64,000 nt of DNA from a virus, in the IMG/VR virus record IMGVR_UViG_3300021963_005763, positions 1 through 64,000 of that record, one strand, 5' to 3'. Below are positions 47,782 to 61,753 of the stretch, one piece after another; positions within the stretch are counted from its first letter, which is position 1, and every line of letters starts with the position of its first letter. The notes under the pieces are model-generated. The model ran no database searches, was not told the DNA's origin, and saw nothing but the letters and a program-made list of their open reading frames with translations. Both the position numbers and the translations under genes were made by a program.

Positions 47782-48094
47782 ATTTGAAGATAGATATCGA
47801 GAATTGTATTCAAGATACGTAGAGCTTAATATAAATCTGCATAATTACCATGTCGAGTTCTTCAGGCGTAAGTTAAAGAAAGATGCAGATAATATACGAG
47901 ATTGTCTTGCCGAGATGAGAGAACTTGTATTGGATATGAAAAAGATAGTGTTAGCAGTAAGACGAGAACATGTAAAAAATTGGCGAGTAAAAATACAGGA
48001 CAAATATTATTACTCTAAAGATGGAAAGAAAAAACTAAAGAGGTCAACGAAAAAAGATTATGGAAACTACAAACCACCTGAAAAAACTATTTGA
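47771..48094 (+). CDS. Basic helical hypothetical protein, possibly a distant Hc1-like paralogue
   Basis: ORF track; overlaps both neighbours. Confidence 0.55.
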   Translation: MSTEFEDRYRELYSRYVELNINLHNYHVEFFRRKLKKDADNIRDCLAEMRELVLDMKKIVLAVRREHVKNWRVKIQDKYYYSKDGKKKLKRSTKKDYGNYKPPEKTI

Positions 48095-48254
48095 AGAATT
48101 TCTCAAAGAAGATGAAAAGTTTACCAGCGGCAATGCTGCGGCTGGAACCAGAGCAAGAAAAGCATTAGCAGAAATTTCTAAGACAGTTAAAGCTCGTCGT
48201 AATGAAATTACAGAAGAAAAAAATGCTCGCAAGGAAGCCAAGGCCGCTAAATGA
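48060..48254 (+). CDS. Histone H1-like (Hc1 family) small DNA-binding protein
   Basis: EKF..GNAAAGTRARKALAEISK..KARRNEITEEKN. Confidence 0.78.
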   Translation: METTNHLKKLFEEFLKEDEKFTSGNAAAGTRARKALAEISKTVKARRNEITEEKNARKEAKAAK

Positions 48255-48257
48255 TTG

Positions 48258-48692
48258 ATGTCTTGGTATCATCAAGATACGATAGTCAATGAATTACCCG
48301 ATGATTGTATTGGTTTTGTGTATCTCATCACCAATACAATCACAAATAAAAAATACATAGGCAAAAAATTAGGCAAATTTTCAAAAACAACCTACAAAGT
48401 AGTAAAATTAAAAAACGGTACTAAGAAAAAGAAACGCATCAAAACAAAGATAGACTCAGACTGGCAAACATATTACGGCTCAAACGATCAACTCACAAAA
48501 GATGTAGCACAATTAGGCACCGACAAATTTCACAGAGAAATATTATATTTTTGTAAATCTAAGGCAGAATGTAGTTACATTGAGGCACGCGAACAATTCA
48601 CAAGAAAAGTATTAGAATCAGACGAATATTATAACGGACAGATATCTGTTCGTGTCCATGGCTCACATATCAAAGGCAAATTAATCGGTTAA
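48258..48692 (+). CDS. Stand-alone GIY-YIG family nuclease
   Basis: GFVYLITN..KKYIGKK, YYGS, FHREIL, SYIEAREQ (catalytic Glu), YYN. Confidence 0.85.
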   Translation: MSWYHQDTIVNELPDDCIGFVYLITNTITNKKYIGKKLGKFSKTTYKVVKLKNGTKKKKRIKTKIDSDWQTYYGSNDQLTKDVAQLGTDKFHREILYFCKSKAECSYIEAREQFTRKVLESDEYYNGQISVRVHGSHIKGKLIG

Positions 48693-49110
48693 CGGCTCGC
48701 ACAGGCTAACTTCATGTGCCCTAAACCTGGACCTAGTGTCGCAGGGACGGAATGCTCACCGCCGTAGTGAGAACTCAACCACTACCCATAAGGATGTAGA
48801 TCACTAATCGCCGTGATTTGGTTGTTTGAATAGGTTAAACCCAAGGCAAAAAAGACGCTCTTAATCGAGCACGTTTTACAAATGTGATAGCGTATATTTG
48901 TAAGACCGCCGTTGTAATGAAGACGGGGATGGAGGTACCGGACAACCGCCTCTGCTAAACACCCTAACGCTGTGTGACTATGCTACTCAGATGATGCATA
49001 ACTTCGCCCGCCCTGGGCGAAGTGTGACCACTTAATCTAGATGATACTAAAAGACAAAAATGCTTCGAGTCTCGTAGACGAAGAAGCGAACGAACGTAGT
49101 TCGTTACTAA
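48693..49110 (+). ncRNA. Candidate large structured non-coding RNA or ssDNA element, family unassigned
   Basis: ORF-free ~420 nt, about 47% GC (hand count over 48721-49080) in an AT-rich genome; more than 10 consecutive stems including a multiway junction; G-U pairs favour the + strand. Confidence 0.7.
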
Positions 49111-49133
49111 ATACCGGATACTGTCAATAAATC

Positions 49134-50417
49134 ATGAAATTATATCAAGCCCTCGGTCAAGAAACTATATTTGAAAGTATAGGTAGTAACGATCCCTATT
49201 TCCGTAAATGGCAAAAAGAAATACATCCTGTTCTATGTGAAGTTGCTCTACAACCCGATCAAATAAATCAATTATTCAAATCGATTGAGAAGGGCGGAGG
49301 GAGAAGTCTCATAGGCAAGGCCAAGGATGCTGCTGGAAAAATTAACAACATATGGTTTGATAAATTCGGTGGTATGTTACAAAATAGCACTCCTGTCCAA
49401 GCATTTGATCAAAAATATGAACAACTTAAATCAAGCATAGCTGCTAAGAATCATAAGGTAGCTGCTAGTTTAGCCAAGTATGGGGATTTCGCAAAAAACA
49501 ACCCTAAATTACAAAAATTTTTATTGGCAATCGCAGGCAGCGTGGCTGCTGCACTAGGAGTAGCGTTTGCAGGAGGGGTAGGTGCTGGAGCATTAGCAGT
49601 GGGCACAGGTGCAGGCATAGCAACAGGTATCATTAATATTGCTGACCGTTTATTACAAGGACAACGAGCCAGCACTGCTATTGGTAGAGGCGCTACTACA
49701 GGAGCCATTGCTGGACTAACTGCTGCGGCTGCTACAACAATTGCTGGATCGATAGCAGATAGTTTTAGAGCAGAATATGTTCAAGCCAGAGGTGCTAACA
49801 ATCTAATGAAAGGCACATTCGATCTCAATGGTCAATGGACCTTTGTCACAGGCAAAGCTGAAGATGTTCGTATGCTGAACAAACTAGTCGATGCTGGAGA
49901 TATGAACGGTTTTTATAACCTAGTGGCCAAGATGCGAACTCCGGAATATGTTCAAGGATTGAACGCTTCTATGGACATTATCAAACAGGCTGCTCAACAT
50001 TATCAAACAGCTAAGGATACACTGACAACATTGGCACAGGTAGCTGCTGCCGGAGCAGGCGGTGCTGTCAGTGCGGCTACAAGCGGTCAACCTACTACTG
50101 AATCAGTATCCCGTAGACAAATTACAGAATTATTTGGCATCACTGGTAATAAGATAGATGCTAGTAAATTAGAAAAAGCATGGACACAGGCTGGCTCTCC
50201 TACAGACAGTGAAGAAATTAGAAAAATTTTACAAAGTGCGGGCGTCGAATCTAGCATTATAGATCAAGCATTTCAAGATATAGGTGTTCAAAGTTCTGTT
50301 GGAAACACAGCAAATAAAACAGTTACTCAAACGGTAAATACGCAGGAAATAGTAGCAAGAATACGAAAACTTACTCCTGCTCAACAAAAAGAAATTTTAG
50401 CCTTGTTAGGACAATAA
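49134..50417 (+). CDS. Probable internal virion / ejected protein with glycine-zipper hydrophobic segments
   Basis: TAAATA at 49108-49113; FLLAIAGSVAAALGVAFAGGVGAGALAVGTGAGIATG and further G/A-rich stretches. Confidence 0.6.
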   Translation: MKLYQALGQETIFESIGSNDPYFRKWQKEIHPVLCEVALQPDQINQLFKSIEKGGGRSLIGKAKDAAGKINNIWFDKFGGMLQNSTPVQAFDQKYEQLKSSIAAKNHKVAASLAKYGDFAKNNPKLQKFLLAIAGSVAAALGVAFAGGVGAGALAVGTGAGIATGIINIADRLLQGQRASTAIGRGATTGAIAGLTAAAATTIAGSIADSFRAEYVQARGANNLMKGTFDLNGQWTFVTGKAEDVRMLNKLVDAGDMNGFYNLVAKMRTPEYVQGLNASMDIIKQAAQHYQTAKDTLTTLAQVAAAGAGGAVSAATSGQPTTESVSRRQITELFGITGNKIDASKLEKAWTQAGSPTDSEEIRKILQSAGVESSIIDQAFQDIGVQSSVGNTANKTVTQTVNTQEIVARIRKLTPAQQKEILALLGQ

Positions 50418-50418
50418 C

Positions 50419-51267
50419 ATGAGAATTAATGAAATTATAACTGAAGAACAACTGGATGAATTAAACCTAAAGGGTCTAGGAACAGGGTTAGGTAAAGTTA
50501 TCGGTGGAGCTGCTGGCGGTGTAGTTCAGGGTGCTAAAAATGTTTGGTCAGGAATGAAACAAGGCTATCAAGGCGCTCAACAGGCATTAGCCCCGGATAC
50601 AACTGGTACAACTGCTCCTGCAACAACTGCTTCTGGTGCTACTACATCTCCTAGTACCAGTGCAACACCTACTACGTCTACTGCTCCTAGTTCTAGCTCA
50701 GTCTCTCCGTCGACTGCTCAATCTACAACAACAGCTCCAGAACCGCAGGCAACTCTGGATGAATTAGATAGTATCAAGGCGTTGGTTCAAAAATTAAATC
50801 CTGAACAAAAGCAAGAAGTAGCAGCTGAATTACAAAAACCTGAAATACAACAACCGTCTGCACCTGCTCCCCAACAAGCACCTGCCGCTCCTACAGGAAC
50901 AAGTGTAGATATAGGTCAGGTTAAGCAGCAAAGTGCTCAACAAGCACAGGCAGCGCAGACAGATAAAGCTACAGCACAGCAACAGATCGCAGCTACACAA
51001 CAAGCAAATAGTCAAAAAGCCAAACAAGATGCTGCTATTAAGGCTGCTAAAGATGCTGCTATGGCTAAACCAGCTTTCCAGCAGACAGCATCAGACAAAC
51101 TGGCTATTCAAAAGGCACAGCAAATGGGTATTAGAGAAGCGGTAAGTGAGAGTAAACAACCTAAAAAGCCTGCACCAAAGCAGCCTGCTAAAAAGCCTAC
51201 TCCTGGAAAGAAGAAAAAAATTGTTGTTGCGGAATTTAATAGTAAATTTCTAGGAATACCTATCTAA
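50419..51267 (+). CDS. Low-complexity probable internal head protein
   Basis: N-terminus MRINEIITEEQLDE; T/S/P-rich, Q/A-rich and K/P-rich segments. Confidence 0.6.
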   Translation: MRINEIITEEQLDELNLKGLGTGLGKVIGGAAGGVVQGAKNVWSGMKQGYQGAQQALAPDTTGTTAPATTASGATTSPSTSATPTTSTAPSSSSVSPSTAQSTTTAPEPQATLDELDSIKALVQKLNPEQKQEVAAELQKPEIQQPSAPAPQQAPAAPTGTSVDIGQVKQQSAQQAQAAQTDKATAQQQIAATQQANSQKAKQDAAIKAAKDAAMAKPAFQQTASDKLAIQKAQQMGIREAVSESKQPKKPAPKQPAKKPTPGKKKKIVVAEFNSKFLGIPI

Positions 51268-60943: not shown

Positions 60944-60965
60944 AAGCCCGCCATGCGGGCTTTTT
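60944..60965 (+). terminator. Rho-independent terminator after MCP
   Basis: AAGCCCGC-CAT-GCGGGC-TTTTT. Confidence 0.88.
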
Positions 60966-60981
60966 GTTAACAGCCTTAACA

Positions 60982-61020
60982 GGTTTATGCGGTACCCGCC
61001 GCGTAGTGGCTAGAACCCAC
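60982..61020 (+). promoter_or_regulatory. Compact structured 5' leader (two hairpins, possible pseudoknot)
   Basis: TATGCGGT-ACCC-GCCGCGTA and GTGG-CTAGAAC-CCAC; 5' GGTT can pair with AACC at the second hairpin. Confidence 0.5.
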
Positions 61021-61039
61021 ATACATTGAGGAGAAACAA

Positions 61040-61753
61040 ATGGGACGTCCGATTAAAGAAAAGTTTTTTGGTAATACAAATTCACCTTACACAAATGTAG
61101 CAAGAGGTGGAACATCAGGAGTAGGTGGGGAAGGATTTGGTGCTGTTGCAATTTTAAATACAGCAACAAATAGCGGATATTCTACTTCTACAACTGTTAC
61201 ATGGACAGGAAGCACACCGCAAGTTCCGGGTGGTGTAGCAGCTAGCGGTACTGCAAATGTGCAATTTATTGGTGGAACTGGGCGTATTCAAAGTCTTAAT
61301 ATAACTACCGCTGGTACTGGTTATACATCAACATCTAGCGTTACTATAACATTTAGCCCAGCAACAGGTGGTACTGCTGCTACGTATGCTATTACTGCTT
61401 TAACATCAAGTCGCCAAAATGCGTTGAGAGGTTTCGCATACCTAACGACTGGAAGTAGTGCTGTTCCTTATGATATTATGGAACAAAGAAGTAGCCGCAG
61501 GTATTTAGTGAACACAAGTCAAGGTAGGGGCGTGGTTAAATTAGCTACTACTACAACCTTAACAGCAGGAACAATGAATTTAGAAGCTACTGATGCAAAT
61601 AGTAATAAGTATCTTGTTAAGAAATTAACAGGACGCCGTGCTGTTCTTGTAAGAACAACAGCTAGCGGAGCTTGGTTATTTGCTACAAATGCTGCCGCAG
61701 GGTGGACATTTAATTCTGCGAGCACAGGCACAGTTAGTTTAGCAAATAATTAA
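61040..61753 (+). CDS. Probable capsid decoration / virion protein
   Basis: Follows MCP; GAGGAG RBS; T/G/A-rich with GTGYTS..VTI motif. Confidence 0.65.
   Translation: MGRPIKEKFFGNTNSPYTNVARGGTSGVGGEGFGAVAILNTATNSGYSTSTTVTWTGSTPQVPGGVAASGTANVQFIGGTGRIQSLNITTAGTGYTSTSSVTITFSPATGGTAATYAITALTSSRQNALRGFAYLTTGSSAVPYDIMEQRSSRRYLVNTSQGRGVVKLATTTTLTAGTMNLEATDANSNKYLVKKLTGRRAVLVRTTASGAWLFATNAAAGWTFNSASTGTVSLANN

Follow-up and report, generated by a model that had tools for sequence, protein, structure and literature searches.

The Polynucleobacter-1 RNA (RF01718) was reported in 2010 as a motif located mostly downstream of genes resembling PSSM2_218 of cyanophage P-SSM2, with a 3' half that escaped detection in some cases; no purified phage was found to carry it, and it was listed as possibly cis-regulatory (Weinberg et al. 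2010, PMC2864571). The DNA analysed here, referred to as the window, comprises positions 1 to 64,000 of the IMG/VR virus record IMGVR_UViG_3300021963_005763 (103,953 bases; CheckV completeness 29%), whose source is an uncultured freshwater T4-like phage. Positions 48693-49133 of the window are predicted, by sequence and comparison with relatives, to encode on the + strand the full-length form of this RNA, a pseudoknotted non-coding RNA of ~410 nt. The Rfam model covers the 5' third only, which is the part known before; the 3' two thirds (~280 nt), with pseudoknots, tail hairpins and two copies of one short word, the twin boxes, are unmodelled, absent from Rfam and new here. The carriers described below are T4-like viral contigs, whereas the 2010 report had no purified-phage example. 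In the literature, only the 2010 paper was found to name the motif, and no paper was found that describes the 3' extension.

Several other described systems resemble this locus in part. GOLLD and ROOL are likewise large, ornate non-coding RNAs, borne by phages or prophages and defined by covariation; the present RNA is smaller (~410 nt), matches neither of them by sequence or model, and we know of no twin-box feature described for either. In HEARO and the omega-RNAs (IscB, TnpB), as in this locus, a nuclease gene abuts a long structured RNA, but the enzyme here is GIY-YIG and not RuvC/HNH, co-occurrence is not obligatory, and no guide segment was identified. The IS110 bridge RNA is a structured non-coding RNA beside a small recombinase gene, and in bacteria the present RNA lies just upstream of a recombinase gene. 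In a bridge RNA, however, two loops with a common core determine one DNA partner apiece, whereas the boxes of the present RNA are identical and are not two different guides; in addition, the neighbouring enzyme is a PF00589 tyrosine recombinase and not a DEDD/serine enzyme, the phages lack such a recombinase, the search for DNA targets that match the boxes found none, and the att core of the bacterial islands mismatches the box. ToxI (type III) offers tandem RNA units by a nuclease gene, identical within a locus and differing between loci, together with pseudoknots. Here only two boxes are set in a scaffold that is large and non-repetitive, the gene precedes the RNA instead of following it, the nuclease family is different, and the RNA also occurs without a nuclease. 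Bridge RNAs, omega-RNAs and ToxI are resembled in single features only, and the features that define them failed in this locus.

The 5' domain was identified with cmscan, which matched 48694-48827 to the whole RF01718 model (1-141 of 141) with 113.1 bits against a gathering score of 37 (E 9e-24); seven related loci were also matched, with 112-119 bits. All consensus helices of the family are formed in the cmscan alignment, with two non-standard pairs in the second hairpin, and among them are stems that an earlier note, made by eye from the sequence, had drawn, i.e. GCACA/TGTGC, CCTGGAC/GTCGCAGG, CTCAC/GTGAG, the closing CAACCA/TGGTTG and GATCAC/GTGATT; its CTAC/GTAG stem falls outside the consensus, which has CC/GG at that place. 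The same note had found no known RNA to which the element could be matched, which is wrong for the first 134 nt, and had held that a full Rfam match would remove the novelty; a match exists for one third, and the remaining ~280 nt are absent from Rfam. For 48828-49133 Rfam returned nothing, even at E values up to 10, and cmscan found no other Rfam family on the element, GOLLD/ROOL and intron families included. The context on record for RF01718 also recurs, in the freshwater/estuary habitat and in the position downstream of a PSSM2_218-like gene. Because PSSM2_218 belongs to the same family as the GIY-YIG protein of the window, the link of this RNA to the gene family has been on record since 2010; before this analysis, the gene in that link was not recognised as a nuclease.

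The element begins one base past the stop codon of the GIY-YIG gene (48690-48692). No open reading frame (ORF) of at least 30 aa was found on the + strand in 48693-49133, which is followed by a 427-aa ORF (orf427, 49134-50417). Two further stretches of the window lack an ORF of at least 90 aa and same-strand ORFs of 73-99 aa occupy both, which leaves 48693-49133 as the sole truly empty long stretch, in agreement with what had been claimed for it. Its GC content, estimated earlier as about 47%, is 46.7%, compared with 36.5% window-wide. In folding against shuffled sequences the whole stretch reached z = -2.3 and its 3' 306 nt reached z = -3.2 on the + strand and -0.6 on the - strand. Being empty, GC-rich and folded on the + strand only, the stretch represents a real and strand-specific feature. 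ARAGORN detected no tRNA or tmRNA in the window.

Related loci were gathered via the downstream protein and two short DNA patterns, one per domain, and a profile built from eight aligned copies (alignment A1) was run with nhmmer on the fetched viral contigs. The element was present in 211 of these contigs, most matches spanning profile position 2 to 374-447, and since most are near full span, the whole ~410 nt is conserved, beyond the part held by Rfam. Alignment A1 contains long invariant blocks in the 3' part although the flanking proteins are only 49-69% identical. With blastn, no match to the stretch was found among 50,697 isolate phage records. The earlier note had looked to relatives for conservation, covariation and linkage with the nuclease; related viral contigs provide the first two, and the linkage turned out to be broken both ways.

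Evidence for the fold of the 3' domain was obtained from mutual information, computed on 131 representatives (<93% identity) plus the window, and from pair counting on an independent 32-sequence MAFFT alignment (A2), with 500 shuffles and slid controls. In A2, 81.1% of cells are paired compared with 67.1% in shuffles, and the covariation score is 0.393 against 0.143 for shuffled alignments, none of the 500 being as high and all slid controls reaching at most 0.143. The helices are given in Table 1. Three of them (48857-70, TATGC/GCATA and the CTTCG hairpin) score poorly in A2 because MAFFT shifts them, and they covary by eye in anchored listings. Five of the stems proposed earlier for this part, i.e. 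GCTC/GAGC, the 13-bp stem, GGAGG/CCTCT, TATGC/GCATA and CTTCGCCC/GGGCGAAG, are kept in relatives; a sixth, CCGTT/GACGG, survives in part (48910-11/48924-25), its TTGT pairing instead with the ACAA loop and G48926 with C48964. The two pseudoknots, the helix that encloses the GGAGG/CCTCT hairpin, and the twin boxes come in addition to those stems. The tail is present in only part of the relatives, because many nhmmer matches end at model position 374.

The strongest mutual-information signals that do not reflect pairing are those of identity covariation, in which columns exactly 50 nt apart, within two words of 12-14 nt, change to the same base. Both boxes occur in all 172 loci in which the boxes are readable (six other loci lie outside this count), and the 7-mers of boxes A and B are identical in 171 of these 172, in ten variants of the form [A/G][G/A]AU[G/A]A[U/A/G], at a spacing of 48-59 nt across loci. 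Joint change also extends to the two or three bases in front of CUC/UCU and to the second base behind the 7-mer. GUGAC and some six variable bases stand before each box, and a hairpin of the CUUCG...CGAAG type comes after it; with such shared surroundings the two modules have the look of an old tandem duplication. A tree of 127 elements, made with the boxes masked, implies that the 7-mer changed at least 42 times (position 1 in 26 cases, position 7 in 16, position 5 in nine and position 2 in two), a figure to be taken as an upper bound because recombination moving both boxes together inflates it. The four fixed differences between boxes A and B are all transitions (CUC vs UCU; G vs A after the 7-mer). 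A single partner strand with G and U at the fixed differences could therefore pair with both boxes, although chance might also account for this pattern. The same word present twice, often changed and always jointly, is an unusual signal, and points to a specific reader.

Table 1. Features of the GIY-YIG gene, the Polynucleobacter-1 RNA and the sequence just behind it (window coordinates).
Feature	Position	Strand	Evidence and remarks
Predicted GIY-YIG nuclease gene, 145 aa, catalytic core only	48255-48692	+	PF19835 SegE_GIY-YIG, E 2.6e-32; phrog_447
5' domain, full-length Polynucleobacter-1 RNA	48694-48827	+	Three hairpins and a closed junction with two inner hairpins; cmscan
A-rich linker, variable in sequence and length	48828-48856	+	Alignments A1, A2
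Short hairpin GCTC/GAGC, 4-6 bp in relatives	48857-48870	+	Visible in A1; 48858:48869 among top mutual-information pairs, 4 pair types
13-bp hairpin, loop feeds pseudoknot 1	48873-48906	+	13/13 pairs changed on both sides, 92% of cells paired (A2)
Pseudoknot 1: ATAGCG loop (48887-48892) with CGCTGT (48968-48973)	48887-48973	+	6/6 pairs compensatory, 97% of cells paired (A2); first detected by mutual information
Small hairpin, 48910-11 with 48924-25	within 48910-48945	+	
Pseudoknot 2: TTGT (48912-15) with ACAA loop (48942-45)	48910-48945	+	Both-side changes in 3/4 pairs, 98% of cells paired (A2); mutual information
Enclosing helix, 48926-29 with 48961-64	48926-48964	+	3/4 pairs compensatory, 95% of cells paired (A2); 48926:48964 with 5 pair types (mutual information)
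Nearly invariant hairpin GGAGG...CCTCT, inner CGG/CCG	48931-48953	+	Inside enclosing helix; one AU/UA swap (A2)
Module A: GTGAC (48974-78), then TATGC/GCATA hairpin (48979-83 with 48996-49000)	48974-49000	+	Stem with compensated variation across loci, judged by eye
Box A: CTC (48986-88) and 7-mer AGATGAT (48989-95)	48986-48995	+	In TATGC/GCATA loop
Hairpin CTTCGCCC/GGGCGAAG between boxes	49002-49023	+	In all loci; forms CUUCG/CGAAG, CUUUG/CAAAG, CUUAG/CUAAG
Module B: GTGAC (49024-28), then box B	49024-49046	+	No closing stem found
Box B: TCT (49036-38) and 7-mer AGATGAT (49039-45)	49036-49045	+	
Tail, two hairpins (49062-49087; 49089-49105), likely 3' end region of RNA	49062-49105	+	Minimum-free-energy folds; first hairpin variable in relatives, often a UUCG-loop hairpin; 49089-49094 with 49100-49105 covary (mutual information)
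TAAATA, candidate late promoter of orf427	49109-49114	+	Invariant in 8 aligned relatives (A1); 20 nt before orf427

The same 3' layout is found in bacteria, since the Polynucleobacter flank (NC_009379.1) in the 2010 alignment already contains CUC-AGCGAAA and UCU-AGCGAAA (PMC2864571); that alignment locates the RNA of the cultivable P. asymbioticus QLW-P1DMWA-1 at NC_009379.1 2130672-2131206. RF01718 was detected in 17 of 151 sampled Polynucleobacter genomes, some with two copies, and the bacterial boxes that could be read are AGCGAAA, ATCAAAA, AGAGAAA, AACAAAA or GGAGAAA, each twice per locus. In one genome (G006) the two RNA copies are 18 kb apart on the same strand (C1:401229-401366 and 419563-419698, the latter with AGAGAAA boxes), and two copies each are also present in G007, G008, G029 and G124. 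A divergent DUF6641 gene is located upstream in 20 of the 21 bacterial loci; these 20 have no GIY gene, and the RNA, divergent from this upstream gene, stands behind a promoter-like TGnTAAATA. Downstream, on the same strand, a 188-aa tyrosine recombinase (PF00589) that matches only the C-terminal catalytic part of Xer models follows in at least 15 of the 21. The one locus without a divergent DUF6641 gene is on a phage-like contig that bears gp46 and GIY genes and was binned into a Polynucleobacter metagenome-assembled genome (L396, on G124:C80), a weak hint that the T4-like phages described here infect Polynucleobacter or relatives. In three complete genomes the RNA module is part of islands, of ~10.5 kb at tRNA-Phe in two and of ~22.7 kb at tRNA-Met in one, and lies 1.8 kb from one end of both tRNA-Phe islands and ~10 kb from the nearer end of the tRNA-Met island. 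The islands (L413-L424; G045, G033, G128) are bounded by direct repeats of tRNA halves, with the crossover in the anticodon loop. The idea that the box is the island att core was rejected, as the two islands at the same tRNA-Phe site (G045 and G033) have different boxes. Neither the PF00589 recombinase nor DUF6641 was found in five phage records (one 99% complete), and the lack of a protein neighbour common to the phage and island settings speaks for the RNA being an independent unit.

The protein encoded just upstream of the RNA in the window is a predicted GIY-YIG nuclease with a SegE-type core, as judged from its Pfam match (112 bits against a cut-off of 25) and from the motifs GFVY, KYIGKK, YIEARE and YYNG, which are kept in relatives; the earlier description of a minimal enzyme with the catalytic core only was borne out. 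PSSM2_218 (145 aa) of P-SSM2 is of the same family and is annotated "NAD synthetase", a label given widely to this phrog_447 family in isolate phage genomes (e.g. PSSM2_218; L234:26712-27149) and one that looks like a propagated misannotation. In 176 loci the RNA follows the GIY gene immediately and in the same orientation; what lies downstream of the RNA varies, and is the 427-aa ORF in only 32. All these contigs share the gp46-GIY synteny, so that the 176 adjacencies represent one phage lineage. In ~17 phage loci, diverse unrelated genes of 150-280 aa are inserted between the GIY gene and the RNA, and the GIY family (SegE_GIY-YIG, phrog_447, PSSM2_218-like) is present in 508 isolate-phage records; in the two examined, Melnitz (49% identity) and P-SSM2, a spacer of 150 nt and 0 nt, respectively, comes after the GIY gene, with no RF01718 match. 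The GIY/RNA junction appears as an insertion hot spot, whose inserts include two GIY-type homing-endonuclease-like ORFs and SGNH-like ORFs (insert-bearing loci include L229, L028, L022, L213, L226, L200, L109, L091, L188 and L179).

The Lys-rich insert that the earlier note had pointed out was considered as an RNA-binding mark and rejected; its long form occurs in only part of the RNA-linked GIY proteins, Melnitz and P-SSM2 share a shorter basic patch, and the feature is not specific to RNA-linked copies. No GIY residues were found to follow the box variant. A PDB sequence search with the GIY protein gave nothing meaningful, and PADLOC gave a weak homing-endonuclease match only. Three known arrangements were considered for this gene and set aside: a homing endonuclease of the I-TevI/Seg type (the protein has the core only, its position in the synteny is fixed, and its identity tracks that of gp46), a group I intron with a GIY-YIG ORF (no intron family at E up to 10, and the ORF comes directly after the Hc1-like gene), and an omega-RNA-like system with obligate co-occurrence (the protein is found without the RNA, and the RNA without the protein).

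With respect to transcription, neither a terminator-like site nor a convincing sigma-70-like promoter was found on the + strand between the GIY gene and the element, in line with the earlier remark that no terminator separates the two. Small parts of the stretch or of relatives occur in six metatranscriptome runs, and the four RNA runs that were examined yielded short low-depth contigs of relatives that left parts of the element uncovered. Two studies yielded contigs that run across the GIY stop codon and on into the 5' domain (48632-48782 and 48623-48787), which might reflect read-through transcription or possibly DNA carry-over; one RNA-library contig covers 48850-48997, and in the four low-depth runs neither the joint between the boxes nor transcript starts or ends were found. 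Behind the RNA, the TAAATA motif resembles the T4 late promoter, TATAAATA, and if it does act as a late promoter, orf427 would have its own promoter downstream of the RNA.

The reading preferred here, at about an even chance of being correct, is that of a structured RNA which works as a stand-alone unit and by its knotted core presents the two identical boxes to a single reader, shared by both boxes and specific to the lineage. In phages the RNA would be read through from the gp47-gp46-Hc1-GIY operon, and in bacterial islands it would be made from its own promoter. It would act alone and not as the guide of the nuclease, the GIY-YIG gene being a syntenic neighbour, and the folded core would serve as a scaffold that offers both boxes to the same reader. 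The reader could most simply be a single nucleic-acid strand, because the fixed box differences are transitions tolerated by G-U wobble; alternatively, it could be two copies of one factor. The suggestion of a stand-alone large phage RNA in the manner of GOLLD/ROOL had been made in the earlier note, and the element behaves as such.

Several observations weigh against this reading, most of them from the search for a partner of the boxes. No complementary column exists inside the element, and the reverse complement of each locus's own variant is not enriched in ~10 kb flanks or inside the element. No conserved complement of at least 13 nt was found in a 99%-complete phage genome (G001) or in three partial ones, and no third copy of the 13-nt box was found on either strand of five bacterial genomes. 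A wobble-tolerant partner is also hard to square with the mirrored A/G changes at box positions 1, 2 and 5; the frequency of box changes may be inflated by the recombination mentioned above; and the contigs do not reveal where the transcript ends, how abundant it is or whether it is separate from the upstream mRNA. The other searches agree, in that no box complement was found in the window's own 104-kb record and no target matching the variable boxes in four phage records or five bacterial genomes; a partner of 10 nt or less, one encoded by the host, or a protein would have escaped these searches. The two best, near-perfect complements in the whole records G001, G002 and G003 are both in coding regions and are attributed to chance, because the homologous sites in other genomes mismatch their own boxes.

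Candidate readers or roles for the boxes were also tried and rejected individually. The invariant GUUGUUU wobble-pairs with any box variant and so explains nothing; for the GIY protein as a co-varying reader, normalised mutual information with box position 1 is at most 0.2; and the upstream bacterial "complement" of the box is the promoter-like TGnTAAATA and is not conserved. A sense codon plus stop codon, or a 50-nt bypass like that of T4 gene 60, does not fit bacterial boxes without a stop and a region with stops in all frames. A CsrA site lacks its GGA in the AGA box variants, an anticodon-loop complement would need a pyrimidine at position 37, and a hammerhead-like core is contradicted by variation at the box positions.

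Among the other explanations, the one with most in its favour is still unlikely: a decoy or sponge, in which the two identical sites would titrate or recruit a dimeric or twice-binding protein of the phage, the island or the host. Identical exposed boxes at a variable spacing suit RNA loops over phased DNA sites, and no nucleic-acid partner was found; however, with at least ten box variants that change often, the specificity of the protein would have to change each time, no candidate protein is common to phages and islands, and the AGA-variant box is not a CsrA-type GGA site. A little less probable again is a cis-acting untranslated region (UTR), which would either stabilise or terminate the early operon mRNA as its 3' UTR or regulate the following gene as its leader. 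The listing of 2010, the lack of a terminator behind the GIY gene and the RNA-library contigs that cross its stop codon all speak for such a role, but the downstream gene is not conserved, an invariant TAAATA stands between the element and orf427, the bacterial element is divergent from its upstream gene behind the promoter-like TGnTAAATA, and two pseudoknots with co-varying twin boxes far exceed the needs of a stabiliser.

The co-transcribed nuclease-RNA system put forward in the earlier note, in which the RNA would scaffold or target the minimal GIY-YIG enzyme, and which extended to the bacterial islands would have the RNA serve the catalytic-domain-only tyrosine recombinase, has kept one of its halves, the conserved structured RNA, and lost the other, the partnership, and it is judged improbable. 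The idea is kept alive by the fact that each of the two neighbours consists of a catalytic domain alone (the 145-aa GIY core and the 188-aa recombinase), by the recombinase that follows the RNA in most bacterial loci, and by the adjacency of RNA and GIY gene in loci whose downstream gene varies. That adjacency, however, comes from a single syntenic lineage, the GIY family is widespread without the RNA, the RNA persists despite unrelated genes inserted between the two, neither residue co-variation with the boxes nor a specific basic insert ties the protein to the RNA, no DNA copy or complement of the box occurs elsewhere in the searched genomes, and the island att cores mismatch the boxes. Every test run on the partner idea was contrary or silent. 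Its boldest form, in which the twin boxes would be guides holding two nucleic-acid partners with the same 7-nt core for the neighbouring bare catalytic-domain enzyme (GIY or recombinase), is very improbable; if true, it would represent a new kind of system in which DNA is cut or joined as an RNA specifies, loosely comparable to a bridge RNA. Equally remote is a role at the level of DNA or of copy choice, with the boxes as direct repeats, i.e. 7-bp-overlap recombination sites, an origin primer RNA or template-switch repeats. The overlap regions of tyrosine recombinases and template-switch repeats require identity and not complementarity, the 7-nt length fits, and the bacterial neighbour is a recombinase; on the other hand, the phages have no tyrosine recombinase, both boxes are kept in every readable locus, the structure around them is RNA-like and confined to one strand, the crossover of the island att sites falls in the tRNA anticodon loop and mismatches the box, and no reverse transcriptase was noted nearby.

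The genes around the element follow a T4-like order, with a gp47-like phosphoesterase, a gp46-like SMC/AAA ATPase, a 107-aa ORF and a 64-aa Hc1-like protein in front of the GIY-YIG gene. The Hc1-like protein (48060-48254, +) matches the chlamydial histone H1-like Hc1 (PF07432, E 3e-15), lies just upstream of the GIY gene, and is retained in many related phage loci. Inside the GIY coding region, a long and near-perfect inverted repeat (TGATTGTATTGGT ... ACCAATACAATCA, 48293-48350) received microRNA-like cmscan flags on both strands, far under the cut-offs. Downstream of the RNA, orf427 matched no known family, and the 282-aa protein after it (50419-51267, +), a sequence of very low complexity that is rich in Ser/Thr/Pro/Ala/Gln, matched none either. 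At 60965-61042 (+) the window contains another orphan Rfam motif, the freshwater-2 RNA (RF02980), with 58 bits against a cut-off of 49.9.

The Polynucleobacter-1 motif, an orphan of Rfam since 2010, is only the 5' third of a ~410-nt RNA with two pseudoknots. The finding also corrects an attractive but unsupported assumption, namely that a structured RNA next to a nuclease gene always guides that nuclease. Freshwater T4-like phages commonly carry the RNA, and it is also present in mobile islands of a cultivable bacterium, which provides an experimental handle for the motif, and identifying the reader of its twin boxes would explain why phages and islands both keep it.

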